From the NCBI GenBank assembly GCA_964504445.1, contig CAZDEO010000003.1:21690-85689 (forward strand): a stretch of 64,000 nucleotides of DNA, read 5' to 3'. The notes beneath the pieces were generated by a model. It worked only from the letters and a program-made list of their open reading frames with translations. It was not told where the DNA came from and ran no database searches. This DNA is from an uncultured Anaerolinea sp. Lineage in GTDB: Bacteria; Chloroflexota; Anaerolineae; Promineifilales; Promineifilaceae. The stretch's first letter is position 1, and each line of letters begins with the position of its first letter. The translations under genes were made by a program, and so were the position numbers. Below are positions 8,569-56,754 of this stretch, piece by piece.

Positions 8569-8739
8569 ACTGCCATTGTAGCGTGTGTGGGGCAAAGCGT
8601 GAAGCGTGAAATGGCGCTATTGCCAATCATTGAGAAAGGAGCCAGGGTTCTTCCCGTGGAGGTTGGTAATACTTGTCAGAATGTGCAGAGCAGATTACAA
8701 ATAGGGGGAGCTTTCATCTGGCCCCTGAGCGCAAACACG

Positions 8740-16173: not shown

Positions 16174-19100
16174 CTACGGCCGTACCACCACCGGCAAATA
16201 CACCACCCACTTACTCTGCGCCACGGCCGTAACCGCTGCCACCCCCACAACCGCCCCCCGTCCTTCACTGACCACCACTGAACCGATCTCCGCCGTCAAC
16301 CCCGCAGGCAAAACGGCCGTTACCCCATACGTCCCCAGTGCCACCCCATAGAAAGCAAAACGGCCGTTCCCATCCGTCACCCCCGTTTGCCCCGCCACCG
16401 TCACCGGAACGCCCGCCAACGGCGTCTCCCACGGCTGGCGCAGGCCATCGCGGTTGCCGTCCAGCCAGGCCGCGCCGTGCACCTGGCCCGCCCCAACTGC
16501 AGCCAGCGCCGCGCCGATGCCCGCATCGGCGGCCAGGGTGATGGCCTGCCCTTGCACGGCCTGCGTGGTCGCCGCCAGGGTGTAGCTGCCGGCCGGCGTC
16601 CCCAAGAAGAGGCCCAGGCCGCCCATGCCCGCGGCCAGTTGCGTCCCTGCGCCGCTGCTGAGGGTCAGGGTCACGGGCAGGGCGACGCGCGGCTCATCCG
16701 GCTGCTGGCGGCCGTCGCCGTCCCAGTCGAAGTACACCACGCCGCTGACCTGGCCGGCCAGTTGCAGGGGAAGCTGGAGCACGCCGCCCTGCGCCAGGGT
16801 GACGGCGCGGGCAGGGATGGCGGCAAAGCCGGCCGGCGGCGCGGCTGTGGCCGTGTAGCTGCCGTCGGGCAAGCCGGCGAACTGGACGCGGCCGTTGGGT
16901 GACGTGACGCCGTAGGCCGGCGCTGGCCCGCTGAGCGCCACGCTGACTCCGCCCACGCCTGCCTCGCCTGCGTCCTGCTCGCCGTCACCGTCCAAGTCCA
17001 CGAACGCCTGCACCAGGGTCAACCCGGCCGGGCGCAGCGGAATGGCGGGCAGCGCCACGTCCGCACCCTGCACGGCGATCTGGCGCGTCGCCGGCCCGTT
17101 GACCAGATAGCCGGCCGGCGGCGTGACGGTCAGCGTGTGCAGCCCATCAGCCAGCGTCAGCGGTTCGCCCCAGCCCGTCTGCCCGGAGACGCCGCTGCCA
17201 CCGCCGCCCGCCAGCGTCACGCCCGCCAGCCCCGGCTCGTCGGCGTCGCGGTAGCCATTGCCGTTGTGGTCGCGGAAGGCGGACCAGGCGACCTGCACTG
17301 CGTCGCTGGCTCTGGCTTGCAAAACGACGGGCGTGAGGGTGACGTTGATGTATCTTCCATATCCCCCATTGATCAGGAAGCAGTCTGCTACGAAGGAGGA
17401 TGTACACCATCCCCAGTGGTAGGCCGAGGAATTGTTAAAGCCAGGTACATCTACCACTTTGAAGCAGCCGCCCGCGCCCTGATCCCCGTAGCCGCCGTCC
17501 AGGCCAGTGTATTGGTCATATTGGATGATGGGATTGGCGACATTGCAGGAACCGTTCACTGGCTGGTAATGAACGACGCGCGCGCCAGCGATGGGCACAA
17601 AAGCCTCGCCCTGCTGGTAGCGCACGATGCCGCCCACGTACTGGTTGCCCGCCGATGGTGGGGCCGCCACCCCGATGCCAAGCTGCACCGTCGTCGGATT
17701 TGCGCCGACGGTGAAGACGCCGGGCGAACTGGTGAGGAACGCGCCGGACGGCAGGCCGACCAGTTGCAGCGCATAGGGCGTGTTGGCATTCAGCCCCTCG
17801 AAGCGGAAGTAGCCGGCGCCATCCGGGGCGGCGACGGCCACTTGCAGCCCGCCCGCGCCCACCAGGCGCACGCTGTATTGGCTGACGCTCGGCTCGTTGC
17901 CATCCCACTGGCCGTTGCCGTTGCTGTCGCTGTAGACCACGCCCACCACGTGGCCGGTGGGAACCAGGTTCAAGTTGTTGTTGCTCGGGGTCTGCCCGCT
18001 CTGGTAGGTGATCAGCGGCTCGCTGCCGGCTACGTAGCCGGGCGGCGGCGCGGGTAGGCGCAGGCGATAGGTCGCCGGCGCCAGGTTGCTGAAGCTGAAG
18101 CTGCCGTTGGCGCTGCTGGTCGTCTCCACGGTGACATTGCTGGCAACGTCTTGCAGTTGCACCGTCAGCCCGGCGGCCAGTGAGCCGCCTCCCAGGCTGA
18201 AGGAGTTCGGGTTGGGCGGCCAGACCTTGCCGCTGACGTTGCCGGCGTCGCGCAGGGGGACGAGCAGTGTCTGCGGCGCGTTGTTGGCGACGATCGGCCC
18301 GATGGGCAGCGACCACAGCGACGCATAGCCGGCCGGCGGCGTGAACTGCACCGGGTAGATGCCGCCCGGCAGGTAGAAGGTCGCCCCGCTGCTGCTGAGG
18401 CTTTTCGTAACCCCGTTGACGGTCGCGCTGCCACCGCTCACATACGCTTCGCCTGCTTCGCGGCTGCCGTTACCGTTGCCGTCCAGGAAGGCGCGCACCA
18501 GCAGGGTGTTGGCCGGCTGCACGGCCAGCGCCACCGGCGCGCCGCCGTTGCGCGGCGCGTTGACGCCGGACGGGCTGGCCGGCAGCAGATCGGCTGGCAG
18601 CCCGGCGGTGATCTGGGCGCAGACGGGGAAGAAGCCGCTGGGCGGCGGGTTGAAGACGGCCACGCCGCCGCTGTCGGTGGCAGCCGTCTGCAGCTCGGCC
18701 CCGCTGCCGCCGCAGGCCACATTGCGCAGACGCACGACCACGTTCGCCAGCCGCTGCTCGCCGGCGTCGGCCACGCCATTGTGGTTGCCATCAATGAAGA
18801 CCAGCACGCGCGGACGGCCGTCGCTCGGCGGCACAGGAAAATCGACCAGCGGCACGCCGCCATTGAGCGGCACGGAGACCTCGCGCACCCAGCTTTGCCC
18901 GGCGTGGGTCAGCGTCACGCGGTATTCGCCGCTGTTGATGGGCGATTGGCTGTACCAGCCATTGGAGCCGGTGGTGGGATTGGCGACCGCCTGGCCGCCA
19001 GGCGTGGCGATGACAATGGCCGCGCCCGCGATGGGATCATCCCACGCCTCGTCGAACACGTTGTTGCCGTTGTTGTCGAAGAAGACGCGGCCGCTGACGG

Positions 19101-22100
19101 ACTGGCTTTCGTTGAGTTGGTAGCCCACCTCCAGCAGTTCCACCGCGCCGACGCCGGTCAGCTCGTACCAGCGTTCCACGCCAGTGGTGGGGGCGTAGCC
19201 CGGCGGCAGATTGACCCGCGCCCGGTACGTGCCTACCGGCAGGTTGGGGAAGCTGAAGTAGCCGGTGTTCCAGTTGGTTCCATTCGTGGTCAGCGTGTTG
19301 GCGATCTCTATCCCGTTGGCGTCGTACAGCGCGACCGGAATGCCATTGTTGGATGGCACGTTGCTCTCGGTGCAGTTGTTGCCGTTGGCGCGCACGCCCT
19401 GCGGCGCGCAGCGATCCCAGAAGGCGTAGCCGGCGATGGTCTGCGGATTGGTGGGGTTCCAGGGGTAGCGCACGTCCACGTGGGTGTTGTTGGCGATGAC
19501 GACGATCTGGCTGGAGGTGGGCCAACTTGCCTGCCCCGGCACATTCGGGTCGGGGATCAGGCGCACTTCCAGCGTGGCTGGGTTCAGGTTCCAGTTGCTG
19601 GTGGTGGGCTGGCTGGCGGGCAGGTAGCCGGTTTCGATCAGGCTGCCGCTGAGCGTGCGCACTTCGTAGGTGCAGGCGAAGCCAGGCTGCCCGGCGACGG
19701 GCAGTTGGCAGAACATATTCAGCGAGCGGGAGAGCGTACCGCTGAAGTTAAGGGTGGCGGCGCTGTCGTTGCTGACAACGGCCGTGCGCTCCGCCGGCGT
19801 CAGTTGCAAACCGGGGACCAGGTTGGCGATCTCGCCCCACGGCCGCACCGTGTATGTACCCGGCGCCAACCCCTCCACCAGCGCTTCGCCTTGGGCATTG
19901 GTAAAGGCCACCCGCGCCTGGCTGCCATTGAGCAGCAGCTCGAAGGGCAGGAAGGTAATCGGCAGCGCCTGGCCGTTGACCACCTGTACCGCCTTGATGG
20001 TCAACTCCCCCTGTTTCAGCAGCGTCCAGTTCTCCACGGCGCTGCCGTTGAGCGTGGCGGGCACAAAGCGCTGCGTCACGCCGTCGGCGGTGACGTAGTT
20101 GGCGGGCGGGCCAATTTGCAGGGTGTAGTTGCCCTCGGCCAGGCCGGCAAAGCCGTAAGCGCCGTTGGCGAAGCCAAAGGAGAGGGTTTGCAGGTTGCCC
20201 GGTTGCAGCGTGAAGGGTACGCCGTCCAGCCCCACGCCGCTGTTGTTGGCGACCTGCCCGCCGATCGTGCCGCCAGCGGCGAAGGGCAACTGGGCGCTGA
20301 CCATCTGCAAGTCCGCCACATAGACCTCGATCTCGCGGCTGGCGGGATAGTTGCCGCCCGGCGCGTTCATCTGCACCCGGTAGAGGCCCGGTTCGCTGAT
20401 GCGGAAGGCGTAGGCCCCATGGCTCCAGCTGGAGCCGGTGACGTGGGTGGCGAGTTGATTGCCGTTGGCGTCCAGCAGGCGCACGGTGCGGCCGTTGATC
20501 GGTGTTTCGGTCACTTCGGGCCGGCCGTTGGCGTTGCTGTCGATCCAGGCGCGGCCGACGATGTAGCCATCGTCCTCCGGCTGCGGCGTAAACGGTACCG
20601 GCATGATGCCGAAGTTGATCTCCGTGCCGCCGTCTGCGCCCATCGCCACCGCTACCGGGTTCGGGGTGGAAATGCAGTTGGCGATGATGGAGCAGACGTA
20701 GAGGTTGGTGGCCTCCACCAGGTAGACCCCGGCCTGCGGCGTGAAGATTTGGTAGCTGCCGTTGACGATGGTCGCGTTCAGCGCGGTGTAGGGTGGCGCT
20801 TGCAGCGTGGCCGTGATCACAATACCCTGCCCCAGCGTGTTGATCGTCTCGCCCAGGCCAAAAAAGCCGTCGCCATCCCGGTCAATCCAGCGAAAGCCGT
20901 TGATGTTGGCCGGTTCCAGCACGCTGACCAGGGTGTTGGTGATGGCGCTGCTGCTGTTGTTAACGGCCGTTACCGTCACAGTGTAGCTTCCCGGCGCGGT
21001 GAAGGTATGGGCCACGACTGCGCCGCTGCCCAACTGCCCATCGCCAAAGTCCCAATCGTAACTCACCCCCGTGCCGGCGTTGACGCTGGCGCTGAACTGC
21101 GCCGGTAAATCCTCGTAAATGGGCAACGACGCTTGCAGCGCCAGCCCTTCGATGGGCACATCCAGCACGCCCCCGGCGGCAAAGGCCAGCGAAAATTCGG
21201 AGGTGGAGCCATCGGCGTGGGTGGCGGTGGCCGTCACAAACTGGTTGGGCGGGATGGCGGCAGGCAGGGTGACGTTGAATTCGGCGTCGCCGTCGGCGTC
21301 GGTGGTGACGCTGGTTTCCCCCAGATAATACTCTCCTTCGCCATAGCCGGTGGGGTCGGCTTCCGCACTGTAATAGAAGTCCAGAGTGAACTCAGTATTG
21401 GGATTGCTATCCAGCGTGCCCTGAATAACCGTCGTGCCATTGGCGTAGGCTTGGGCGAAAGTAATGACTGGGTAGTTTTGCAGATTGTTGCCGCCAGTAT
21501 CCGGGTCGTCGGGGTCGTTGATGTTCACGCCTGCCGGGTTGAGCAGGTCAATGCCGATCTGGGCGTTGTTGTAGATGCGGTTGCCGCGCAGGGTGTTGCG
21601 CAAAACAGTGGCGTTAACCCGAACCCCATTGGGGAAATTGGCGGAGCCATAGCCGTTATGGGCGATGATGTTCGCCTCCCCAGGGCCAGTTCCGCCGATC
21701 TGGTTGTCATTGCCGGCGGTGAGCCGGATGCCGGTATAACCGTTGCCACGCGGCGTCACGCCGTCCGCGCCCACGCCGATCAGGTTGCCGGTCAGGACAG
21801 AGCTGGTCAGGTTCAGGCTGATGCCTTCAAAGGTGTTGCCGGCGATGACGTTGTTGCGCACTGTTAACCCCTGCGACGCGCCGCCGATGCCAACGTTGTT
21901 GGGCAGCGCCGCAAGGCCGGTCGCGTCCACGCCGATCCAGTTGCCGGCGATGGTGTTGGGCACAGCGCCAGTCACGCTGACGAACTGCGAGAAGATGCCG
22001 CTGGTGCTGTTGTTAGCGTTGCCGGAGATCAGATTGCGCTCCAGATCATCGCTGACGCCGTCAAAGTTGCTGCCGATCAGGTTGCCATAGCCGCCCAGGC

Positions 22101-23328
22101 TGACGCCGCCGCGCGGCGAGCCGCCGTAGCCGTTGGCAATAGCAAGCATGCCGGTGATGTCCGTGCCGATCTTGTTGCCTGCGACCATGTTGTTCCAGGG
22201 CGACTGCTGGCCGAACGAGACGCCAAAATCGCTGTTGCCGGAGATCAGGTTGCCTTCCAGCGCATCGGAGACGCCGTCGCCGTCCGTGCCGATGACGTTG
22301 TATTCTGTGGCGAGCAGGCGCACCCCTTCCACCTGCAAGCCGACGCTGGCGGTTCCGGCGGCGTTTGTGCCAATCAAATTGCCGGAGACGCGGTTGTGGT
22401 GGCTGCGGTTGGTACTTGTGCCGGTGAGTTGGATGTTGTAGGTGTTGCCGCCGATGACGTTGCCTTCCAGGGCGTCGCCCACACCGTCGCCGTCCGTGCC
22501 GATGATGGTATAGCCCGCTTCCTGCACCAATATGCCGTTGGTGGCGACGGTGGTGTTGCTTGTGCCGACCGGGGCCGTCCCCGCTGCGTTCAGGCCGATA
22601 TGGTTCCCCATGATGCGATTGCCGGTGGCGGCGGGCTGGTAAATCCAGATGTTCTGCTCGACGTTGGCGGAGATGACGTTGCGCTCGGCCGCGTCGTCCA
22701 CGCCGTCGGCGTTGGTGCCGATGCGGTTGTTGCTGGAGCCGCCCTGAATCCAGACGCCGCGCTGGTTGGCGACGCGCGTATCTCCGGCGAAGTTGACACC
22801 GATGTAGTTGCCATAAATCCAGTTGTTGCCGCCGGACTGCAGACGGATGCCGGCGCCATTTGCACCGGTGAAGCCGTTGATCACCAGCCCGCGCACTGTG
22901 CTGCCGCCGCCGGTGATGTTCAAGCCAACTACGCTGCTGCCCGCTGACCCGCCGTTGAGTTCAATCAGCGGAGGACCAGCGTAGCCGCTGCCGCCCTGGC
23001 TCCAGCCGTCGATGGTCACGGGGCCGGTGATGGTGAGCAGAGCAGACGTGGGCTGGATGGTTTGCTGGCTGCCGGGGTCGCCGATGGCGAAGGTGATGGT
23101 GTCGGGGCCGGGGTTGGCGTTCGCGTCCAGAATGGCCTGGCGCAGGGAACCGGGGCCGCTGTCCGCCGTGGTGGTGACAGTGTAGGTGGCGGCGTGGACG
23201 GTAGGACGCAAGGCGAAGAAGAGGAGAATGGTCAATAGCCAATAGCCAATGGTCAACGACCAACGGCGAATCCTCAATCGCAAATCGTCAATCGTCAATC
23301 GCAAATCGTCAATCGTCAATTGCTTCAT
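16174..23328 (-). CDS. Giant secreted/surface protein: signal peptide, parallel beta-helix region, PKD domain, many SdrD-B/Cna-B-like repeats
   Basis: 2384 aa, with AGGAGA 6-7 nt upstream of the ATG. There is a hydrophobic signal segment ending VHA-AT. The N-terminal GSLRQAILDANANPGPDTITF motif is followed by NxIxGN-type beta-helix turns (NVISAN, GNVIGGN, GNLISGN, NNVIAGN). A PKD-like segment reads YDWDFGDG...HTFTAPGSYTVTVTA. At least 10 repeats carry DxNxNG/DxDGDG acidic loops (FFDNNGNNVFDE, FIDGNHNGVADAGE, FLDGNGNGSREAGE, YSDSNGNGQWDGNE, FVDLDGDGEQDAGE, YFDWDGDGRQQPDE, WLDGNRDGLRQPWE). The protein ends YLPVVVRP. Confidence 0.85.
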   Translation of the reverse strand: MKQLTIDDLRLTIDDLRLRIRRWSLTIGYWLLTILLFFALRPTVHAATYTVTTTADSGPGSLRQAILDANANPGPDTITFAIGDPGSQQTIQPTSALLTITGPVTIDGWSQGGSGYAGPPLIELNGGSAGSSVVGLNITGGGSTVRGLVINGFTGANGAGIRLQSGGNNWIYGNYIGVNFAGDTRVANQRGVWIQGGSSNNRIGTNADGVDDAAERNVISANVEQNIWIYQPAATGNRIMGNHIGLNAAGTAPVGTSNTTVATNGILVQEAGYTIIGTDGDGVGDALEGNVIGGNTYNIQLTGTSTNRSHHNRVSGNLIGTNAAGTASVGLQVEGVRLLATEYNVIGTDGDGVSDALEGNLISGNSDFGVSFGQQSPWNNMVAGNKIGTDITGMLAIANGYGGSPRGGVSLGGYGNLIGSNFDGVSDDLERNLISGNANNSTSGIFSQFVSVTGAVPNTIAGNWIGVDATGLAALPNNVGIGGASQGLTVRNNVIAGNTFEGISLNLTSSVLTGNLIGVGADGVTPRGNGYTGIRLTAGNDNQIGGTGPGEANIIAHNGYGSANFPNGVRVNATVLRNTLRGNRIYNNAQIGIDLLNPAGVNINDPDDPDTGGNNLQNYPVITFAQAYANGTTVIQGTLDSNPNTEFTLDFYYSAEADPTGYGEGEYYLGETSVTTDADGDAEFNVTLPAAIPPNQFVTATATHADGSTSEFSLAFAAGGVLDVPIEGLALQASLPIYEDLPAQFSASVNAGTGVSYDWDFGDGQLGSGAVVAHTFTAPGSYTVTVTAVNNSSSAITNTLVSVLEPANINGFRWIDRDGDGFFGLGETINTLGQGIVITATLQAPPYTALNATIVNGSYQIFTPQAGVYLVEATNLYVCSIIANCISTPNPVAVAMGADGGTEINFGIMPVPFTPQPEDDGYIVGRAWIDSNANGRPEVTETPINGRTVRLLDANGNQLATHVTGSSWSHGAYAFRISEPGLYRVQMNAPGGNYPASREIEVYVADLQMVSAQLPFAAGGTIGGQVANNSGVGLDGVPFTLQPGNLQTLSFGFANGAYGFAGLAEGNYTLQIGPPANYVTADGVTQRFVPATLNGSAVENWTLLKQGELTIKAVQVVNGQALPITFLPFELLLNGSQARVAFTNAQGEALVEGLAPGTYTVRPWGEIANLVPGLQLTPAERTAVVSNDSAATLNFSGTLSRSLNMFCQLPVAGQPGFACTYEVRTLSGSLIETGYLPASQPTTSNWNLNPATLEVRLIPDPNVPGQASWPTSSQIVVIANNTHVDVRYPWNPTNPQTIAGYAFWDRCAPQGVRANGNNCTESNVPSNNGIPVALYDANGIEIANTLTTNGTNWNTGYFSFPNLPVGTYRARVNLPPGYAPTTGVERWYELTGVGAVELLEVGYQLNESQSVSGRVFFDNNGNNVFDEAWDDPIAGAAIVIATPGGQAVANPTTGSNGWYSQSPINSGEYRVTLTHAGQSWVREVSVPLNGGVPLVDFPVPPSDGRPRVLVFIDGNHNGVADAGEQRLANVVVRLRNVACGGSGAELQTAATDSGGVAVFNPPPSGFFPVCAQITAGLPADLLPASPSGVNAPRNGGAPVALAVQPANTLLVRAFLDGNGNGSREAGEAYVSGGSATVNGVTKSLSSSGATFYLPGGIYPVQFTPPAGYASLWSLPIGPIVANNAPQTLLVPLRDAGNVSGKVWPPNPNSFSLGGGSLAAGLTVQLQDVASNVTVETTSSANGSFSFSNLAPATYRLRLPAPPPGYVAGSEPLITYQSGQTPSNNNLNLVPTGHVVGVVYSDSNGNGQWDGNEPSVSQYSVRLVGAGGLQVAVAAPDGAGYFRFEGLNANTPYALQLVGLPSGAFLTSSPGVFTVGANPTTVQLGIGVAAPPSAGNQYVGGIVRYQQGEAFVPIAGARVVHYQPVNGSCNVANPIIQYDQYTGLDGGYGDQGAGGCFKVVDVPGFNNSSAYHWGWCTSSFVADCFLINGGYGRYINVTLTPVVLQARASDAVQVAWSAFRDHNGNGYRDADEPGLAGVTLAGGGGSGVSGQTGWGEPLTLADGLHTLTVTPPAGYLVNGPATRQIAVQGADVALPAIPLRPAGLTLVQAFVDLDGDGEQDAGEAGVGGVSVALSGPAPAYGVTSPNGRVQFAGLPDGSYTATAAPPAGFAAIPARAVTLAQGGVLQLPLQLAGQVSGVVYFDWDGDGRQQPDEPRVALPVTLTLSSGAGTQLAAGMGGLGLFLGTPAGSYTLAATTQAVQGQAITLAADAGIGAALAAVGAGQVHGAAWLDGNRDGLRQPWETPLAGVPVTVAGQTGVTDGNGRFAFYGVALGTYGVTAVLPAGLTAEIGSVVVSEGRGAVVGVAAVTAVAQSKWVVYLPVVVRP
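23230..23320. repeat. Heptamer-phased direct repeat block, 13 units (NNNCAAT on +; TTGACGA family on -), including a perfect 21-bp tandem duplication
   Basis: + strand units: ggtcaat agccaat agccaat ggtcaac gaccaac ggcgaat cctcaat cgcaaat cgtcaat cgtcaat cgcaaat cgtcaat cgtcaat. The block covers codons 4-33 of the giant ORF (LTIDDLR LTIDDLR LRIRRWS LTIGYWL...) and the last codons of the upstream small ORF. Confidence 0.85.
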
Positions 23329-35972: not shown

Positions 35973-36779
35973 ATGGGAGAATTTTCTGGCGTAAAACGGC
36001 ACCTGACACGGTTTGAAGAGTTGGCCCAGCGGTTGGTGGAAGGTTCTTTTAGCCGCCTTTTTGGCGGGCAATTGCAGGCTATGGATCTGGCGACGCACCT
36101 GGCGCGAAGTATGGAAGATAATCAACTGAATGGACTAGCCCCTGATGTGTACGTCATTCATTTGCATCCAAAAGCATATGCTGCCATTTCCGGTGCGAAC
36201 CTCCAGTTAGCGGATGATCTGATTGCCTACATTGAGCAATTAGCGCACCAAAGCCATCTTGCTTTGGTAAGCACACCCGAAGTGCGCTTTACAACAGATC
36301 CTAATTTGCCGCGTTTTGCTATTTCCGTGCAATCTGAGCATGGACAAATAAAGGCGCAAACGACCCAGGTTCACCAACGACCAACGGCCGTAGACGACGT
36401 AGCCATGGCTGTTCAGGCGTTGGATGCCTTTCTTATTTTGGACGGCAAGCGCCATGTGGGGTTGGAGAAGCCAATTGTTACGCTTGGGCGGCGGGTGGAA
36501 AATGACATTGTGTTAGAGTCGACAACAGTTAGCCGCCGCCATGCACAGCTCCGCTGGCGTTACGGCCGTTTTATTCTGTATGACCTGAGTGGACGGGGCC
36601 GAACGGCCGTTAATGGCGAAGCCGTTACCGAATGCGTGTTGCAACCAGGAGACGTTATTAACCTGGGAGGTACCCTCATCATCTACGGCGAAGGGCGCGA
36701 AAAACCAATTAGCACCCTGCCTTCGGCTGATGATGGCGACACCCAATTGCGCTTTTCACCACCAGCAGAGGAATCGTGA
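35973..36779 (+). CDS. FhaA-like protein (DUF3662-type N-terminal domain + FHA domain)
   Basis: 268 aa. The N-terminal FEELAQRLVEGSFSRLFGG and the C-terminal FHA segment (VTLGRRVENDIVLESTTVSRRHAQL...GRTAVNGE) are both present. Confidence 0.8.
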   Translation: MGEFSGVKRHLTRFEELAQRLVEGSFSRLFGGQLQAMDLATHLARSMEDNQLNGLAPDVYVIHLHPKAYAAISGANLQLADDLIAYIEQLAHQSHLALVSTPEVRFTTDPNLPRFAISVQSEHGQIKAQTTQVHQRPTAVDDVAMAVQALDAFLILDGKRHVGLEKPIVTLGRRVENDIVLESTTVSRRHAQLRWRYGRFILYDLSGRGRTAVNGEAVTECVLQPGDVINLGGTLIIYGEGREKPISTLPSADDGDTQLRFSPPAEES

Positions 36780-40995: not shown

Positions 40996-42018
40996 CTAGT
41001 GGGGAGGTGTGTCTACATTTTCCAGCCACTCTTCCACAATTTGAATGCCTAAAACCGGGGCATAGATATTGCGCGTGGTAGAAATGTCTGTGTGGCCCAA
41101 AAATTCTTGCACCACCTCCAAAGGCATGCCAGCACGTAACAGCTGTGTTGCCCGGTAATGGCGAAAATCATGAGCTGAAAGGTTATCATGTAGCTGTAGT
41201 GCCTTTACAGCTTTTTTAACCACGTTGTGAGCGGCAGTGGTGGAAAGGCGCGCATTTTTGGCGTTGCGGCTGTGGGAGATGAAGAGTGCTGGGTTGGCAT
41301 CGTCCCGTTCAGCCAGATATGCACGAATGGCTGGCCCGGCATAATCGCGAATATGTAGCGTCCGCGGCTTATTGCCCTTGCCTGTTATTGTGGCGAATTT
41401 CGCGTAACCGTTGTCCACGTTGCTGCGATTCAAACTGACCACTTCAGATATGCGGGCAGCCGTGGCGTAGAGCACTTGCACCAACGCCCGGTCACGAAGC
41501 AGTGAAAGGCGACGATTGTAGCTGTCGTTTTGCTGGGGAAGGGGGAGATTTTCGTAATAGGCTATTATTTGGGGAATGGCTTGCCGTGCCTCATCCATAT
41601 CAATTACCATTTCGGCCTGGTTGCGCTCTAGCGGACGGCGGGCCAACTGGCGTTGTAGCTTGCCCAGTTGGATGGTTTCGGGCAGGGCGTCGATGCCGTC
41701 AAGATAGTTCAAATAGCCCATGAGCGCAGCCAGGTAGGTTGTTGTCGTGGATTTAGCGCGGTTAGCCAGCAGCCAGGTGCGGAAGTTGAGAATTACGGCC
41801 GTATCCAAGTTTGCCGGCGAAAGTGGCCACTCAGTATCTAGACTGTAGTCGAGACGGCCAAAATGCTGCAACCAGTCTGCAAACAGGCGCAAACCAGAGC
41901 GATACGTTGTTTCTGTTTTGGCGCTGTGAATACCCGCTTCCAATAAAAAACTGGTTTCATGCAGCCAGGCCGGCTTGGCGGGAAACGGCCGTTTTGAAAG
42001 AGGTAAAACCTGTGGCAT
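40996..42018 (-). CDS. Tyrosine recombinase / phage-integrase-family protein (XerC/D-like)
   Basis: 340 aa. The catalytic pattern is present: ARISE (Arg), HDFRHY (His-x-x-Arg), LGH, and NIY (Tyr). It contains two ACGGCCGT copies. Confidence 0.8.
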   Translation of the reverse strand: MPQVLPLSKRPFPAKPAWLHETSFLLEAGIHSAKTETTYRSGLRLFADWLQHFGRLDYSLDTEWPLSPANLDTAVILNFRTWLLANRAKSTTTTYLAALMGYLNYLDGIDALPETIQLGKLQRQLARRPLERNQAEMVIDMDEARQAIPQIIAYYENLPLPQQNDSYNRRLSLLRDRALVQVLYATAARISEVVSLNRSNVDNGYAKFATITGKGNKPRTLHIRDYAGPAIRAYLAERDDANPALFISHSRNAKNARLSTTAAHNVVKKAVKALQLHDNLSAHDFRHYRATQLLRAGMPLEVVQEFLGHTDISTTRNIYAPVLGIQIVEEWLENVDTPPH

Positions 42019-43257: not shown

Positions 43258-43389
43258 ATTTCTGCCTCCGCTTACTAGTCGTTTTTCCCCCACCCCAATA
43301 TTAGCAATCTTTTAAAAATCGCTAGCCAACAGCTTTTTTATGTGTTAAAATTTTGATATGTCTAAATTTTTGTCTAGGAGGTGTTAAAA

Positions 43390-44430
43390 ATGCCTGATCC
43401 CCTTACCTCACTGTTGGTTGCTACAAGCCTGGCAAGTTTGGGTATTCTGCTTTTTTGGCCAGAAAAGGGCCTGATTTCCCGTTGGCAAAAAACTCGCCAA
43501 ATTACGCAGCGCATGTTAGGCGAGGATGCCTTAAAACACATACACAAATGCGATATGAAAGGACGTCGTCCGACTATGGAAAGCATTGCTGGCGCTTTGC
43601 GAATTAGCCCCAACGAGACAGCCGAACTGGTACATGGGTTGCAATCGCAAAAACTGGTGGAGGTGGTTGAAGGGGAAATTCACCTGACCCCACAAGGTCG
43701 TGAGTCAGCCCTGCACATTATCCGTGCCCACCGTTTGTGGGAGCGCTATTTGGCTGAAGAAACTGGCTATCAGGAAGCCGATTGGCATGATCAGGCCGAG
43801 CGTTTTGAGCATCACCTGTCGCCGGATGAATTGGATAGTCTGGCAGCACAACTCAATTATCCCACCCATGACCCCCACGGGGATCCTATACCCACGGCTG
43901 GGGGAGAGATGGTTACCCATGGCGGGCGACCTCTGACATCTTTGCCCGTTGACGTTCAAGGGCACATTGTGCACCTTGAAGATGAGCCACCTGTCGTTTA
44001 TGCTCAGTTAGTCGCTGAAGGTTTGCATGTGGGGATGCCCATCCGGGTTATCGAAGCAACGGCAGAACGCATTCGCTTTTGGGCCAACGGGGATGAGCAT
44101 GTGTTGGCGCCCATTTTTGCCAACAATATTTCTGTGGTCCCCTTGCCTGAACCCCTTCCGCCCCCTATGGAGGATACCATGTCGCTGAGGGATATTAGAC
44201 CTGGCGAAATGGTAGAAGTTGTGAGCATTTCGCCTCAGTGTCGAGGAACGGAACGTCGCCGTTTTTTGGACCTGGGAATTTTGCCCGGTACAACGATTCA
44301 AACCGAGATGAGAAGCCCGGGCGGCGGCACAACGGCCTATATTATTCGCGGCGCTTTGATTGCTTTGCGTGAACAGCAGGCCAGCTATATCAAAGTCAAA
44401 AAATATCAACCGGAGGTGGCGAAGATATGA
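43390..44430 (+). CDS. DtxR/MntR-family metal-dependent regulator with N-terminal hydrophobic helix and two C-terminal FeoA-like domains
   Basis: The track start 43381 is a GTG abutting the SD. ATG 43390 lies 9 nt after AGGAG. The DtxR-like HTH/dimerisation region ([15 protein letters not shown]...HDPHGDPIP) is followed by two SH3-like FeoA segments ([15 protein letters not shown]..., [15 protein letters not shown]...). Confidence 0.75.
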
Positions 44431-45275
44431 CCACACCAACTTTACGAACAAATACAGCTACTGCGGCGGACTGCGCCGCTTGCCCGGCCCATCATGCGGG
44501 CAATTTGCGCAAGCTAGGCGTAGATATGTCTGATTTTGATTATGTCGTTGCCCTGGCCGGCAACCCCAATGTAGGGAAAAGTACCGTTTTCAATGCGTTG
44601 ACGGGCTTGCGCCAGCACACGGGGAATTGGCCGGGAAAAACGGTAACCCGGGCGGAGGGGGGATTTAGCTATGGTAACGGCCGTTACAAACTTGTTGATC
44701 TGCCCGGCACCTATTCCCTTCTCTCCACCAGCAAAGATGAGGAGATTGCCCGAGACTTCATTCTTTTTGGGCAGCCCGATGTCACCATCATTGTGGTAGA
44801 CGCAACGCGACTGGAGCGCAACCTCAATCTTGCCCTGCAAGTGCTGGAAATTACCGACCGGGCGGTGATAGCCTTGAACCTGATGGACGAAGCGCAGCGG
44901 CATGGTTTGGAGATAGACCATCGGCGGCTGGCGCGGGATTTAGGCGTTCCTGTCGTGCCCATGGCTGCCCGCCAGGGTGAAGGGATTGCTGCGCTGCTGC
45001 AGGCCGTCCATGAAGTAGCTACTGGGCAAACGGTATGCAAGCCACACCGGCTTAAAAGCGAATCTCCCACTGTGCAGAAAGCTGTGGAAACATTAGCCCG
45101 TCAGTTGGAAGCGCAATTTCAGAATTTACCCAATGCTCGCTGGGTTGCCCTCCGTTTGCTAGATGGCGACCAAAGCATCATTGAAGCTGTGCGCAGTGGT
45201 GAAATTGGTAACCTGGCCGCGCCCACCCTTACGCAGCAGCCCGAGAGTTTACCGTTGACGTTGGAGGCCGCATGA
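44427..45275 (+). CDS. feoB: FeoB, separate G-domain (GTPase + helical domain) polypeptide
   Basis: 282 aa with G1 [10 protein letters not shown]3 DLPG and G4 NLMD. It ends with ATGA overlapping the start of the membrane part. An alternative start, MSDFDYV, is possible. Confidence 0.8.
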
Positions 45276-46759
45276 CAACCTATACGCCTGAATTGAAGGG
45301 GGATGAATTGAGCAAGTCGGTAGAAACGGCCGTTTCCACCCATCCTGAAGCGGACGTCCTCCGCCTGGCTGAATCCCTGCGCTGGCAAGTGGGCCAAAAC
45401 TTTCATGAACAGTTGATGGAAGACATCTACACCGCGGCGGCGCGCATGGCTGACCGGGCTGTTACGCGCCCCAATGAAAAGCCGCGCTTTGACCTGGACC
45501 GTACCATTGACCGCATTGTCACCAGCCGCATTTGGGGTTTTCCGCTGATGATTCTGCTCTTTGCTGTGGTCTTTTGGATCACCATTGTTGGCTCCAATTA
45601 TCCCTCCCAGGCACTGGCCTGGCTGCTGGTAGAGACCATACACCCGGCTTTGCAAACGGGCGCGGCAACCATAGGGCTGCCCTGGTGGCTGAGCGGACTG
45701 CTCATTGATGGCATGTATCTGGCCACAGCCTGGGTTGTCAGCGTGATGCTGCCCCCCATGGCTATTTTCTTCCCGCTGTTCACGCTGCTGGAGGATTTTG
45801 GCTATCTGCCGCGGGTGGCCTTCAACCTGGACAACATTTTTCGCAAGAGTGGGGCCCACGGCAAACAAGCCTTGAGCATGATGATGGGTTTTGGGTGCAA
45901 TGCCGCCGGCGTGGTGGCAACGCGGGTTATTGATAGCCCGCGGGAACGATTGATTGCCATTATTACCAACAACTTTGCCTTGTGTAACGGCCGTTGGCCG
46001 ACCCAAATTCTCATTGCCACCCTGTTTATTGGCGGGCTGGTACCCGCTTACCTGGCGGGGCTGGTCTCGGCGTTGGCGGTGGTGAGCATTGCCATGTTGG
46101 GCGTGCTGCTGAGTTTCGCCGTCTCGTGGGGCCTTTCGCGCAGTATTCTCAAAGGAGAGGTTTCCACCTTTAGCCTGGAACTGCCCCCCTATCGTCCCCC
46201 GCGCATCTGGCAAACCATCTACACCTCGGTCATTGACCGCACCCTGATAGTGTTATGGCGGGCGGTGATGTTTGCGTTACCGGCAGGCGCCGTTATCTGG
46301 CTTTCTGCCAATATTACGCTAGGTGAATTGAGCTTGGCGGAACATTTAATCAACTCCCTTAATCCGGTGGGCTTACTCATTGGGCTAAATGGCGTGATTT
46401 TGTTAGCCTACGTCGTGGCCATTCCCGCTAACGAAATTGTGATTCCCACCATACTGATGCTCACCGTGTTGGTGACGGGTGCCGTGAATGTGGGCGCCGG
46501 TGCGGGGGTGATGTTTGAGCTGGATGACAACCTGGCGATCAAGACCCTATTAGATGCTGGGGGTTGGACGCTGCTAACGGCCGTCAACCTGATGCTCTTC
46601 TCTCTCATCCACAATCCCTGCTCTACCACCATCTATACCATCTACAAAGAAACGGGCAGCAAAAAATGGACCCTCATTGCCGCGCTGCTGCCGGTGGCGA
46701 TGGGGTTCATCATCACCTTTTTAGTGGCGCAGGTGTGGCGGCTGGTTTCCGGGGGATGA
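45272..46759 (+). CDS. feoB: FeoB, separate membrane (gate-domain) polypeptide
   Basis: 495 aa. [18 protein letters not shown]... is followed by about 8-10 TM segments typical of the FeoB permease region. Confidence 0.8.
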
Positions 46760-52755: not shown

Positions 52756-53313
52756 TCATTTAGTTTGACGTAGAATAGCCTCCGCCACAGCGCGGAGGCT
52801 TTTTCTTTTTTCACGCGCATACTGCTGCATCAACCGATAAGCAGCTTCCTCATCCAGGCCTTCGGCCATCAGGCGCCCCTTTGCGCGTTCGACCAGTTTG
52901 CGCCCTTCTAAGGCGTCTAATAGTTCATGGGTACGCTGATCCAGGACCTGCGCCTCGGTAAAGCGCTTGCGGGCCACGGCAATGGCTGCCGCCAGGTCAC
53001 CTTCCTGAATTGGCTTAACCAGGTAACCATGAATGGGTAAATCAGTGGCTTTCTCAATAAGCTCGCTTTCGCTGAAAGCGGTAAGTAGAATAATGGGGAG
53101 CGGATTTTGCTGACCCAGGGTTTGGGCGACTTGCAAACCGTCAGTAAAAGGCATTTTGATGTCTAGAATGGCCAGATCTGGGCGATGTTGTTGCGCCATA
53201 CGCAAGGCTTCACGGCCGTTTACGGCCGTAACCACCTGGTGTCCCAATCCTTGCAGCATTGAACGTAGCCCCATACGGATAATCGATTCGTCGTCAGCAA
53301 TGAGAATCTTCAA
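52756..53313 (-). CDS. Response regulator with ANTAR RNA-binding output domain (PdtaR/AmiR-like)
   Basis: 185 aa. Receiver domain (ILIADDE...DLAILDIKMP) plus ANTAR (LEGRKLVERAKGRLMAEGLDEEAAYRLMQQYAREKRKSLRAVAEAIL). Confidence 0.9.
   Translation of the reverse strand: MKILIADDESIIRMGLRSMLQGLGHQVVTAVNGREALRMAQQHRPDLAILDIKMPFTDGLQVAQTLGQQNPLPIILLTAFSESELIEKATDLPIHGYLVKPIQEGDLAAAIAVARKRFTEAQVLDQRTHELLDALEGRKLVERAKGRLMAEGLDEEAAYRLMQQYAREKRKSLRAVAEAILRQTK
52777..52811 (+). terminator. Rho-independent terminator for the + strand sigma/anti-sigma operon, embedded in the 3' coding end of the convergent ANTAR gene
   Basis: Stem AGCCTCCGC (52777-52785) pairs with GCGGAGGCT (52792-52800) around a 6-nt loop, followed by TTTTCTTTTTT. 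Confidence 0.75.
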
Positions 53314-53315
53314 AG

Positions 53316-54947
53316 TCAGTGTCGTTCCTTCTCAACGGTGCGGGGTATCCGAATGCTGATTTCTGTACCTCCGCCAGCCGGTCGGTTATAGCGGATACGG
53401 CCGTGCAAATCCTCCGCGACCAGCGTTTCCACAATTTCCAAACCCAAATTGCGGATCAGGTTAGCCGGTAGACCCACGCCATCGTCTTGCACAAGAATAA
53501 TCAAGTCATCGGGGCCACGGCCCAGGGAGACGGTGATCGTGCCCCATGACTGCCCCACAAATGCGTGTTCCAGGGCATTTTGCACCAACTCGTTAACAAC
53601 CAGGGTTACGGCCGTTGCTGCCCGGCTGGGGAGGAGAAACTGCTCGCCCTGCACGGTAAGCACAATATTACGTTCCACGGCGCCACTCATCTCGGTTGTC
53701 ATGCGCGTAATGCGTCGTAGCGCATCAGCCACATCCACCAGGGTAAAGCCCTGCTCCGAAAGCACTTCATGAACAGTAGCAATACTCTGTACCCGGTGTA
53801 TGTTGGTTTGTAACACTTGCCGTGTATCCAGCGCTTCAGCGTTTGGCAACTGGAGCTGCATGAGCATTGCCACCGTTTGTAAGTTATTCTTAATTCGGTG
53901 ATGCATTTCGCGAACCACCGCCGCATTGGTAACCAGCCGCGCGTTTTCGATGGCCAGGGCAGTCTGATTCGCCAGCGTTGCTAGCAGCGCTCGCTGCTTT
54001 TCACTAAAATCCCGCCGCTCATAACTATAACAGTTAAGAACGCCAATCACACGGTCTCGCACGCTAAGAGGGACGGACAGCAAGGAGATGAATCCTTCTT
54101 GCGTCGCCAACTCCGGGCGCAAATAGCGAGGTTCTTGGCGCAAGTCAGGAATGTACATGGCCTGCCCAGTCTGGGCTACAAGACCAGTGACACCCTGCCC
54201 CAAAGGCAGTGGCGGCTGTTGGCGATAACTTTGGCTGGCGCGCCTGGCCGAGCGCATCTCTAGTTGCTTTTCAGCCTCATTGAGCAAGAAAATGGCACAG
54301 ACGGCCGTTTCCATAGTCTGCGCCGCCATCTCAGTAACCACATCCAAAATTTCATCCAAATACTGCGGCGAAGTAACCACCTCACTCAGCGTAGCCAAAG
54401 CGTGCAGTTCACTAATTTGCCGTTTCTGATCATCATACAATTGTGCCTTTGCCAGAGCGCCTGCGGCTAATTCTCCGATTAATGAAAGAAGATCTATCTC
54501 GCTATCCGAAAATTCATGTCGTGCCAAAGTTTGTACATTTAAGGCCCCAATTACCCGTTCCTCAATTCGCAAGGGAATAGCCAACAAAGAGTGAAATTGC
54601 ATCTCCAATGTCTCGTCCACCCGCTTGAAGCGCGGGTGCTGTTGCGCATCTGTGGCGAAAACTGGTGCATTCAACTCAATGGCATAACCGGTCATCCCCT
54701 CCCCCACAGCAAGCGTTGCCCGGCCCAAGGCCCGCCGAGCCAGCCCTGTAGTAGCCCGCAGCCGTAGTTGACGGCCGTCCGGATCCAACAGATAAATAGT
54801 ACACGAATCCACATCCATTACTTCCGTAGTCTTACGGGCAATCAAATCCAACGTAGTGTCTAAGTCCCAAGCAGCACTCAACGCCCGCGCAATCTCACGC
54901 AACGCTGTAACCGCTTGCGGTCTGGCTGATGTCGTCATCCCATGCAC
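53316..54947 (-). CDS. Cytoplasmic GAF-GAF sensor histidine kinase (HisKA_2/PdtaS-like)
   Basis: 543 aa with no TM segment, two GAF-like regions, an H-box HHRIKNNLQ and an HATPase region (DDGVGLP). Confidence 0.85.
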   Translation of the reverse strand: MHGMTTSARPQAVTALREIARALSAAWDLDTTLDLIARKTTEVMDVDSCTIYLLDPDGRQLRLRATTGLARRALGRATLAVGEGMTGYAIELNAPVFATDAQQHPRFKRVDETLEMQFHSLLAIPLRIEERVIGALNVQTLARHEFSDSEIDLLSLIGELAAGALAKAQLYDDQKRQISELHALATLSEVVTSPQYLDEILDVVTEMAAQTMETAVCAIFLLNEAEKQLEMRSARRASQSYRQQPPLPLGQGVTGLVAQTGQAMYIPDLRQEPRYLRPELATQEGFISLLSVPLSVRDRVIGVLNCYSYERRDFSEKQRALLATLANQTALAIENARLVTNAAVVREMHHRIKNNLQTVAMLMQLQLPNAEALDTRQVLQTNIHRVQSIATVHEVLSEQGFTLVDVADALRRITRMTTEMSGAVERNIVLTVQGEQFLLPSRAATAVTLVVNELVQNALEHAFVGQSWGTITVSLGRGPDDLIILVQDDGVGLPANLIRNLGLEIVETLVAEDLHGRIRYNRPAGGGTEISIRIPRTVEKERH

Positions 54948-54961
54948 ACACCTATTCTACG

Positions 54962-55010
54962 TGAAAAAGCCCACCTTGGGCACACAGCAAGCCGCGCACA
55001 AGGTGGGCCG
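54962..55010 (-). terminator. Rho-independent terminator after glnA
   Basis: On the - strand: GCCCACCTTG ... CAAGGTGGGC, a 10-bp stem (+ coordinates 54969-54978 and 54999-55008), followed by U5. Confidence 0.8.
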
Positions 55011-55042
55011 TTAAAAGTTAGCCCTCAGTCTTCACCCACTAA

Positions 55043-56446
55043 CTAGATACCATAGTACAACAAAAACTCGTACGGGTGCGGGCGCAAACTTACCGGACCA
55101 ATTTCTTCGTGACGCTTATAATGAATATAAGCGTCCAACAAATCCTTAGTGAAAACACCCCCCTCCAACAAAAACGCCTGATCCGCTTCCAGCGCATCCA
55201 AAGACTCATTTAGTTTCCCCACCGTCATCTGCACCTTGTCAATATTTTCATCCTCAAACAAGTCCATGTCTGCCGGATCACCTGGATCAATCCGGTTCTT
55301 AATGCCATCCAAACCAGCCATAAGCATCGCCGCAAAAGCCAGGTACGGATTAGCCGCCGGATCAGGGCAGCGGAACTCAACACGCTTGGCCTTAGGGGAG
55401 TGCGAATACATAGGAATACGCACAGCTGCCGAGCGATTGCGCGCCGAATAAGCCACCACGACCGGCGCCTCGTACCCAGGAACCAGCCGACGATACGAAT
55501 TGGTTGTGGGCGCCACAATCGCCAGCAAAGCATTAATATGCTTTAGAATGCCACCAATATAATAGAGCGCCATCTGGCTCAACCCAGCGTAAGCATCCCC
55601 AGCAAACAAGGGCTTACCATCTTTCCACAAGCTCTGATGCGTGTGCATGCCCGAGCCATTATCCGCAAATATTGGTTTAGGCATGAACGTTACGGTTTTG
55701 CCGTGAGCTTTGGCCACATTTTTGACAATATATTTATATAGCTGCACTTTATCCGCCATGGTCACCATCTGATCATACTTCATATCAATTTCACACTGAC
55801 CAGCAGTACCCACTTCATGATGGTGTACTTCCACATTGAGACCAGACTCAATCATCACCCGCACCATCTCCGAGCGTAAGTCCTGCAATGTGTCAAAAGG
55901 AGCGACCGGAAAATATCCCCTTTTATGCGGCACAGAGTGGCCAAAACCAAAAATACCAGAATTCCAGGGGCCTTCAACACTATCTACCTGGTAGGCAGAA
56001 GAATACTCACCGGCCGAATACTTCACCTGATCAAACACAAAAAACTCGGCTTCGGGGCCGAAATAAGCAGTGTCCGCAATCCCGCTGGCCTTTAGATATT
56101 CCACCGACTTCTGGGCAATATAACGCGGATCACGCGAGTATGGCTCCCGGGTAATCGGGTCAAAAACATTGCATACCAGGCTCAAAGTCGGCATGGTGCA
56201 GACAGGATCGACAATAGCCGTAGATGGATCGGCCAACAAAATCATGTCGCTGGCTTCAATACTCTGAAATCCCCGAATGGACGAGCCATCAAAGCCCATT
56301 CCTTCATTAAAAGCCGTATCTGGATCAAACTCCTCTACAGGCATGGAAAAGTGCTGCCACTGACCAAAAACATCAGTAAACTTCACGTCAACAATCTTTA
56401 TACCTTTCTCTTCAATAAACTGCATCACATCGTGGGGAGTCTTCAT
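55043..56446 (-). CDS. glnA: Glutamine synthetase, type I
   Basis: Typical GSI sequence ([32 protein letters not shown]). The SD AGGAG abuts the track ATG 56455, so ATG 56446 (9-nt spacing) is preferred. Confidence 0.9.
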
Positions 56447-56504
56447 TGTTTTCATCTCCTTAAAAAATTATTTTGTACCCCGTGGCTCTTACTTGACCAC
56501 TAAA

Positions 56505-56551
56505 GCAAAAAACGCCTTTGCCACAGACAAAAATCTGTTAGCAAAGGCGTC
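56505..56551 (-). terminator. Intrinsic terminator inside the glnA 5' leader (candidate attenuator)
   Basis: On the - strand: ACGCCUUUGC-(19-nt loop containing ACAGA/UCUGU)-GCAAAGGCGU followed by U6. It lies about 60 nt upstream of the glnA start. Confidence 0.75.
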
Positions 56552-56592
56552 CTGGCCTTCAAATAAAATATTTTATTTTTGCTCACCATAGC
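56544..56592 (-). promoter_or_regulatory. Two small hexaloop hairpins resembling an ANTAR target; the second overlaps the terminator 5' arm
   Basis: P1 is GCU-AUGGUG-AGC (+ 56581-56592), with loop A1 and G4. P2 is AAGGC-CAGGAC-GCCUU (+ 56544-56559), with loop G4. The 3' arm of P2 and part of its loop cover 7 of the 10 nt of the terminator 5' arm. Confidence 0.5.
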
Positions 56593-56637
56593 GAACCCTT
56601 TAATGTTACAGGAACACACCAAGTGAATCAATACATG

Positions 56638-56646
56638 ATTATATCA
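56638..56646 (-). promoter_or_regulatory. Candidate extended -10 promoter element for glnA (TGATATAAT)
   Basis: The - strand reads attgTGaTATAATcatg, about 190 nt upstream of the glnA start. No good -35 element. Confidence 0.45.
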
Positions 56647-56754
56647 CAATTACTGTCAGTTATTTTGTGCAAACTGCCTAATTCATTCACTTAGGCTAGA
56701 TTTTTTCGTCAAATTTGCCACAAACCACAACTTATGCGACGATAGGCAGCCATC

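Follow-up and report, generated by a model that had tools for sequence, protein, structure and literature searches.

In an uncultured Anaerolinea sp. of the phylum Chloroflexota, the leader of the glutamine synthetase gene glnA is probably an ANTAR-type, protein-dependent transcription attenuator which controls nitrogen assimilation genes. The gene lies in a 64-kb stretch of contig CAZDEO010000003.1 (the window, whose positions are used for numbering), and its locus is read on the - strand. There, glnA is followed by a terminator, by the gene for a sensor kinase with the domains GAF-GAF-HisKA_2, and by the gene for a REC-ANTAR response regulator; open reading frames (ORFs), Pfam domains and TIGR00653 confirm this order, which had been proposed in an earlier reading of the sequence (the original prediction). 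The leader contains an intrinsic terminator, a small hairpin (P2) with a six-nucleotide loop, and a conserved A-rich box upstream of P2 (Table 1). The original prediction placed glnA under RNA antitermination by the adjoining kinase/regulator pair, acting through two tandem hexaloop hairpins, P1 and P2. Comparison with related leaders strongly supports the control; however, it does not support the dual-hexaloop anatomy. Attenuators of this type are known already (predictions in Firmicutes, and GnfR in Geobacter); the phylum and the non-canonical layout of the RNA are new.

Leaders related to that of glnA

Some 2000 homologues of the kinase are found, and the best of them, with identities of 65-86%, belong to Chloroflexota (Anaerolineae, Ardenticatenaceae, Promineifilaceae). 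A kinase alignment, scanned against a single genome from each species, gave eighty reference loci. In most of them the genes for the kinase and the ANTAR regulator adjoin; several loci have no regulator match, and some have an intervening gene. Directly upstream of the kinase gene there is a glutamine synthetase (GS) type I gene in about 20 loci and a gene for a 720-750-aa GSIII_N protein in about 20 others. An ammonium transporter (Amt) gene is frequently present farther upstream.

When glnA leaders are compared side by side, the element GGCC[AG]NGA[CT]GCC is found straight before the terminator. An exact match to GGCCNNGACGCC is found in 39 of the 80 loci, coding matches included. Once coding matches were dropped (for example GGCCGTGAAGCC, inside the regulator gene), 45 leaders were left. 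These belong to the window and to 36 of the reference loci, from Ardenticatenales and Promineifilaceae genomes, and all are on the kinase strand. In such genomes, the total of leaders having P2 and an overlapping terminator beside this gene pair is put at about 47. A covariance model built from the family leaders (R2) finds 45 matches in 910 kb searched on both strands, again all on the kinase strand. The window leader, which is part of the training set, scores 38.3 bits (E = 6e-7) and is the sole real match in the window; its reverse-strand shadow scores 14.0 bits, and every other match is below about 9 bits.

Each of the 45 leaders stands before a GS type I, GS type III or Amt gene or operon, one of them the operon LysE-x-glnA. 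The element is present in none of the roughly 38 kinase/regulator loci which have no GS or Amt gene nearby. About 20 further leaders, which have a real terminator and are AU-rich upstream, were obtained in a metagenome scan; the pattern used was loose, and most of its 120 matches are chance occurrences in GC-rich coding DNA. All 13 box-bearing metagenome leaders with a classifiable downstream gene precede Amt (8), GS type III (3) or GS type I (2) genes. Elsewhere in the window, sequences with one mismatch to GGCCNNGACGCC number 14 vs 8.6 expected, which is chance level, and none has a terminator. A window site with box-like sequence (36556-36580) is antisense inside an ORF and was rejected. 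No further nitrogen genes were found in the window.

Some leaders have additional features. In five loci an ORF of about 330 aa, conserved but without a Pfam match, is located between amtB and the GS type III leader (Table 1); it may be part of the amtB operon and under the same control. On three metagenome contigs (L111, L199 and L166, - strand, at about 2006) GGCCARGACGCC and a terminator lie directly before a response regulator gene, without the A-rich box; the regulator encoded on L166 has 46% identity to that of the window. This arrangement may reflect autoregulation in other lineages.

The terminator and hairpin P2

A 101-nt stretch of the window leader folds at -40.2 kcal/mol, with z = -6.3, and each of 200 shuffled sequences is less stable. 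The terminator is predicted to form about 20 pairs followed by U6, and thus has the stable GC-rich hairpin and U run of an intrinsic terminator; the letters of the leader agree with those given in the original prediction. Its 5' arm begins within the P2 loop, so the two structures overlap. This overlap is exactly as originally described, and P2 itself recurs in all 45 leaders. Like known ANTAR targets, the leader has a hexaloop hairpin overlapping the 5' arm of an intrinsic terminator.

The geometry is general in the family. Among the 41 leaders that could be parsed automatically, the 5' arm of the terminator starts at P2 loop position 2 in 22 and at position 4 in 14, and it contains the GCC (3') arm of P2 in 38. 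P2 and the terminator are mutually exclusive. The median terminator has 19 pairs, an energy of -28 kcal/mol and a U run of 6; the median energy of P2 is -3.4 kcal/mol. Termination would thus be the default outcome, P2 requiring help in order to form. Terminator stems are free to vary in sequence among leaders, and their pairing is always kept. The GGC/GCC core of P2 is invariant except for one compensated G-C to A-U change; at its fourth pair, 26 leaders have A-U, 2 have G-C and 1 has G-U. The loops seen are CAAGAC, CAGGAC, CGAGAC, CGUGAC, CACGAC, CAUGAC, CCUGAC, CAAGAU, CAGGAA and CAAGCC (the last in L056), and G4 is invariant in all of them.

A second P2-like hexaloop hairpin within 130 nt upstream of P2 was found in L039 only; the remaining matches are in promoter DNA. 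This sole twin-hairpin leader (L039, 28-66) has GGCAAA-CGAGAC-UUUGCC 21 nt upstream of its P2 (GGC-CGAGAC-GCC), and the two loops are identical. There are also leaders in which sequence beyond the terminator complements or repeats the 5' half of P2. In L079 (4252-4335) a 14-bp complement lies just past the terminator; the amt leaders of L011, L018, L028, L066 and L073 have ACGGCCGUC about 25 nt past the U tract.

The A-rich box

The box has the consensus M-A-A-N-M-R-A-A-U-A in the 45 leaders and is located 5-11 nt upstream of P2, with a U-rich spacer between. Its last five positions, and with them the final AAUA, are kept in 40-45 of the 45, and it is also present in metagenome leaders. In the window, the stretch formerly read as an AU-rich linker, the length of which was a caveat in the original prediction, holds this box, AAAUAAAAUA, within an AU hairpin (AAAUAAA-AUAU-UUUAUUU, 56578..56561), and can no longer be considered a simple spacer. 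By our reading of the alignments, box positions -7..-2 (A-H-M-R-A-A) appear close to the published ANTAR loop consensus AAHGRH, with G at the fourth place in half of the leaders. Because a MAFFT alignment of the short box-to-P2 stretch (A3) left the spacer ungapped, the box and R2 are both based on a longer alignment, A2. Pairing of the box with the terminator U tract (in the window, AGCAAAAA with UUUUUGCU) is no better than with shuffled partners (p = 0.13) and was discarded.

The kinase and the response regulator

The kinase has no membrane segment among its domains. In common with PdtaS-like kinases it has an N-terminal GAF domain, a HisKA_2 H-box (EMHHRIKNNLQ, invariant among homologues) and HATPase_c; its second sensor domain is GAF, not PAS. 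GAF1 (residues 14-190) is PtsP-like (NF008283, PtsP/EI-Ntr, 6.8e-46; PDB 3trc, 3ci6). GAF2 (residues 180-358) is NifA-like and matches the N-terminal GAF region of NifA (TIGR01817, 3.2e-27). The GAF domain of NifA binds 2-oxoglutarate. In EI-Ntr (PtsP), binding of glutamine to the GAF domain inhibits autophosphorylation (PMC4848567). The kinase may thus read cellular nitrogen status, because GAF1 resembles the glutamine-binding GAF domain of PtsP and GAF2 that of NifA; the sign of its response is assumed from physiology.

The regulator ORF begins 2 nt past the kinase stop codon. Its product matches Response_reg (6.6e-28) and ANTAR (5.2e-16), and the closest solved structures are Rv1626 (1s8n, 8e-40) and EutV (6wsh, 1.6e-28). 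Residues D51, R138, K145, E155 and Y159 align with EutV D54, R142, K149, E160 and Y164. The protein is thus predicted to have both a phospho-acceptor Asp and, in a C-terminal ANTAR domain, the residues for reading G4. In L013, L019, L021, L023, L024 and L035 an extra gene (at about 7650-8700) separates the kinase and regulator genes. Its product has an NGRDA stretch (compare NGREA in the regulator) and looks like a second receiver protein.

Comparison with known ANTAR systems

The seed alignments of Ramesh et al. have the consensus SYAC-AAHGRH-GUDB for P1 and RRGY-AAHGDV-GCYY for P2, and published P2 hairpins include GGC-AACGAC-GCC and GAAGC-AAAGAC-GCUUC (PMC3369931). The family P2, GGC-CA(A/G)GAC-GCC, departs from these at loop position 1 only. 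In the structure of EutV with RNA, G4 is stacked on Tyr164, is held by Arg142, Lys149 and Glu160, and is the sole base contacted specifically; A1 has no specific contact, and Walshe et al. redefine the minimal ANTAR motif as a single hexaloop (PMC8934654).

The ANTAR RNAs predicted in Firmicutes (Ramesh et al. 2012, PMC3369931 Table S2) are similar in several respects. They too have a hexaloop hairpin overlapping a terminator before a glutamine synthetase gene, they adjoin an ANTAR regulator gene, and they share the theme of nitrogen assimilation, with ammonium transporter genes also among the targets. Examples are Alkaliphilus metalliredigens Amet_3386/3385, Desulforudis and Carboxydothermus (PMC3369931). 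However, a dual-hairpin model was used to find them and their loops are A1/G4, whereas the window family has no conserved P1, an invariant C1 and an A-rich box; it also belongs to Chloroflexota, and its regulon includes GS type III.

EutW/EutV, which controls ethanolamine utilisation in Enterococcus faecalis, likewise consists of a cytoplasmic kinase which phosphorylates a REC-ANTAR regulator. The G4-contact residues of EutV are kept in the window regulator, and P2 loop positions 2-6 are the same as in the eutG loop AAAGAC. The signal and the kinase sensor domains differ, EutV needs P1 and a short linker in vivo, and the window regulator has other residues in place of EutV Met172 and Arg168. 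PdtaS/PdtaR of Mycobacterium tuberculosis (Rv3220c/Rv1626) provides the closest solved relative of the regulator. PdtaS is also cytoplasmic, with HisKA_2 and an N-terminal GAF domain, and members of the window kinase family are labelled PdtaS by JGI. PdtaS is GAF-PAS, whereas the window kinase is GAF-GAF, PtsP-like plus NifA-like; the signals reported for PdtaS are c-di-GMP, copper and NO (PMC8131098; bioRxiv 10.1101/615575). It should also be noted that target genes adjoin the system in the window family, unlike in PdtaS/PdtaR. In GnfK/GnfR of Geobacter sulfurreducens, the ANTAR regulator relieves premature termination in the nifH, glnK and amtB leaders (PMC2995071). The Gnf RNA sequence CAGGCAANGGCGCC contains GGC-AANGGC-GCC, the stem of which is the same as that of the window P2 (PMC2995071). 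Differences are the A1 in the Gnf loop, the position of the Gnf motif both upstream of and overlapping the terminator, the lack of an evident sensor domain in GnfK, and the subordination of GnfK/GnfR to a second cascade, GnfL/GnfM.

Proposed mechanism and alternative explanations

The following mechanism is proposed. By default, the nascent glnA leader would fold into the terminator (about -28 kcal/mol or stronger), and RNA polymerase would stop before glnA. The kinase would report nitrogen limitation; by homology, its GAF domains would sense glutamine and/or 2-oxoglutarate. It would phosphorylate the regulator at Asp51, and a regulator dimer would bind the emerging P2 (GGC-CAGGAC-GCC), reading the flipped-out G4. 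P2 is very likely the target of the regulator encoded next door. Held shut, P2 would block the terminator, because it uses the first bases of the terminator 5' arm, and transcription would continue into glnA. The same element would control GS type III and ammonium transporter genes in related genomes. The A-rich box stands in place of the canonical first hairpin and most likely aids recruitment of the regulator; this is the most speculative step.

Several points weigh against an ANTAR-type attenuator. Covariation in P2 is thin: three pairs show changes on both sides, a number which 6 of 500 shuffles also reach, and because the near-invariant core leaves weak covariation support, P2 rests mainly on sequence conservation. 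Position 1 of the P2 loop is C, never A, in every family member and so lacks the canonical A1; a caveat in the original prediction has thus become an invariant trait of the family. A covariance model made from 30 published dual-hairpin targets (R1; Ramesh Fig. S2) gives the leader 4.7 bits and aligns P2 only, without a P1; the published cut-off for ANTAR targets is at least 15 bits, with P1-P2 linkers of 2-25 nt accepted (Mehta et al., PMC8164766). The canonical P1 (at least 3 bp, an A1/G4 hexaloop and a linker of 2-25 nt) is present in one of the 45 leaders, that of the window, against 3.8 +/- 1.9 in shuffles. P1 is needed for EutV-dependent induction in vivo (PMC3369931), and the family has no canonical P1. 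In the regulator, EutV Met172 and Arg168 are replaced by Arg167 and Gln163. Roughly half of the kinase/regulator loci are without a target in the neighbourhood, and it is therefore co-location in the remaining half that links leader and regulator.

The leader is missing from the top R1 matches in the window, and no family leader is among the R1 matches in the family loci. R1 matches at about 10 kb in several loci are antisense to conserved ATPase coding sequence and were dismissed.

A canonical dual-hairpin target, with P1 and P2 separated by a passive linker of about 20 nt and a regulator dimer using both hexaloops, is scarcely credible. P1 (GCU-AUGGUG-AGC, 56592..56581) can be drawn with A1 and G4, and the linker of 23 nt is inside the accepted range of 2-25 nt (Mehta et al., PMC8164766). 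However, P1 is a minor register of a 5' hairpin for which RNAfold favours a 6-bp form with a UAUG tetraloop. Homologous hairpins in L069 (CCGUUCGC-UGCG-GCGAGCGG), L001 (AAUUCGC-9 nt-GCGAAUU) and L176 (GUUCGC-AUCA-GCGAAC) have loops of 4, 9 and 4 nt and no hexaloop, and the 5' hairpin is not family-wide. In the comparative alignment of glnA leaders P2 is conserved, whereas P1 is not; its single occurrence among 45 leaders is below that of chance, the published-target model does not pick it, and EutV function is lost when the linker is lengthened to 14 nt (PMC3369931) or by 20 nt (PMC8934654). The window P1 is a chance feature of one sequence, and the tandem hexaloops of the original prediction have to be given up. 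It is also unlikely that the box supplies both loop and 5' arm to a first hairpin which is AU-rich, weak and stabilised only by the protein, that is, a degenerate recruitment hairpin and not a linear site. Such a hairpin is far better than chimeric controls in six leaders (window, L001, L002, L067, L069, L079), with one compensatory U-A to C-G exchange between the window and L069/L079, and the closeness of box positions -7..-2 to AAHGRH, with G at the fourth place in half of the leaders, is in its favour. Across the family, however, the box and the U-rich spacer pair no better with each other than in chimeras with shuffled partners (p = 0.41; p = 0.35), and were rejected as a family-wide P1. 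At least 3 closing pairs around the box are found in at most 13 of 45 leaders, whichever loop register is used, and in five leaders the box pairs with upstream sequence instead.

Other explanations dispense with the regulator. The terminator could be under the control of a box-reading RNA-binding protein or a small-molecule riboswitch, or be a fixed attenuator, the kinase and regulator genes being merely co-transcribed with glnA. The box equals P2 in conservation and is not known to play a part in ANTAR systems, no leader is found near about half of the kinase/regulator loci, and the published-target model fails on the leader. Even so, this is very unlikely. A box of 10 nt and a hairpin of 12 nt, which make up the conserved part, leave too little length for a ligand pocket. 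Rfam gives no match in the window at the gathering threshold, and only chance matches in the leader at E <= 10 (microRNA models, SQ2397, PyrR, sR43); neither window nor leader matches the glutamine riboswitch (glnA RNA motif) or other Rfam cis-regulators. P2 is nearly base-for-base equal to published ANTAR P2 hairpins, and the leaders adjoin an ANTAR gene in 36 reference loci. Practically no weight can be given to the possibility that GGCCARGACGCC and the A-rich box act not as RNA elements but at the DNA level, as operators bound by a transcription factor. The box is within about 30 bp of the inferred transcription start in GS type III and some amt leaders. However, the orientation is strict (45 of 45 on the coding strand), the element is not palindromic, its register to the terminator is fixed while the terminator stem varies freely in sequence, and both candidate promoters of the window are 40-75 nt upstream of it.

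The preferred explanation is thus an ANTAR-type attenuator. A more specific form of it can be put forward tentatively: a GAF-GAF kinase sensing glutamine and 2-oxoglutarate, and an ANTAR regulator whose targets have a single hexaloop (C1, G4) and a linear A-rich recruitment box, might run ammonium assimilation (glnA, GS type III, amtB) in Ardenticatenales/Promineifilaceae. If true, this would be the first family of natural targets to agree with the 2022 revision that makes one hexaloop the minimal motif, and dual-hairpin models would miss a whole class of ANTAR targets. They do miss such sites here: the window leader receives 4.7 bits from R1 vs 38 bits from the family model, in the training set of which it is included. 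Conservation of the antitermination hairpin but not of the recruitment hairpin in about 60 natural leaders bears on the question of whether one hexaloop suffices. Chloroflexota are abundant in wastewater, soil and sediments; to our knowledge, little is known about their nitrogen regulation, and literature searches found nothing on ANTAR control in this phylum. The locus offers a concrete circuit with four parts: sensor, regulator, RNA site and regulon.

Promoters and other features of the locus

Features of the glnA locus are listed in Table 1. The promoter of the original prediction, the extended -10-like TGATATAAT, is present within a conserved block, TGCACAAAATA-N11-TTTGTGATAnAAT, which is kept in L176, L069 and L001 in alignment with the window and holds the inverted repeat ACAAA...TTTGT. 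It may be an upstream promoter or an operator. However, a better-formed candidate of sigma-70 type, TTGATT-17-TAACAT, lies nearer the leader and ends about 7 nt ahead of the 5' hairpin; its hexamers and 17-nt spacing are the same in the window and those three loci. Transcription would then start near 56596. If this proximal promoter is the one used, the leader is about 140 nt long and not about 190 nt. The two promoter-like blocks (56603-56672, -) could be a tandem promoter, or the operator of a DNA-binding regulator atop the attenuator.

Table 1. Positions of features in the glnA locus of the window and of a conserved ORF in related loci
Feature	Position	Strand	Basis
Extended -10-like TGATATAAT	56646..56638	-	within conserved block TGCACAAAATA-N11-TTTGTGATAnAAT
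Candidate proximal sigma-70-type promoter	TTGATT 56631..56626, 17-nt spacer, TAACAT 56608..56603	-	conserved hexamers
5' hairpin GUUCGC-UAUG-GUGAGC, 6 bp	56596..56581	-	RNAfold
Conserved A-rich box AAAUAAAAUA	56578..56569	-	family alignment A2
P2, putative antiterminator hairpin AAGGC-CAGGAC-GCCUU, hexaloop with C1 and G4	56559..56544	-	sequence, family model
Leader intrinsic terminator ACGCCUUUGC...GCAAAGGCGU then U6 (56512..56507)	about 56553..56507	-	fold
Hairpin GUGGUC-AAGUAAGA-GCCAC, between leader terminator and glnA ribosome binding site	56500..56482	-	fold
glnA, glutamine synthetase type I	56455..55043	-	Pfam Gln-synt_N + Gln-synt_C; TIGR00653, 644 bits
Post-glnA terminator GGCCCACCUUG...CCAAGGUGGGC then U5	55009..54964	-	sequence
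Sensor kinase, 543 aa, cytoplasmic, GAF-GAF-HisKA_2-HATPase_c	54947..53316	-	Pfam
REC-ANTAR response regulator, 185 aa	53313..52756	-	Pfam
ORF of about 330 aa	L028 2390-3385; L039 1630-2664; L055 2480-3424; L066 2417-3415; L073 2471-3460		

The glnA product is classed by NCBIfam as a type I glutamate-ammonia ligase. Within 56444-56461 (-), the sequence AAGGAG is directly against the first ATG (56455) and has normal spacing only to the second, at 56446; the latter is therefore probably the true start, which would give the N-terminus MKTPHDV. A hairpin similar to that between the leader terminator and the ribosome binding site is found in L069 (about 4440-4465; GUGGCCAA-AUAA-UUGGCCAC), also upstream of glnA, which follows amtB in that locus. 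TAGAAT occurs about 7 nt ahead of the kinase start codon, right behind the glnA terminator (54947-54962, -). The mRNA for kinase and regulator may lack a leader, or it may have a promoter of its own. Elsewhere, the window contains a 2384-aa ORF (16174-23328, -), a tyrosine integrase gene (40996-42018, -), and a gene for an iron-repressor/FeoA fusion followed by a split feoB (43381-46759, +).

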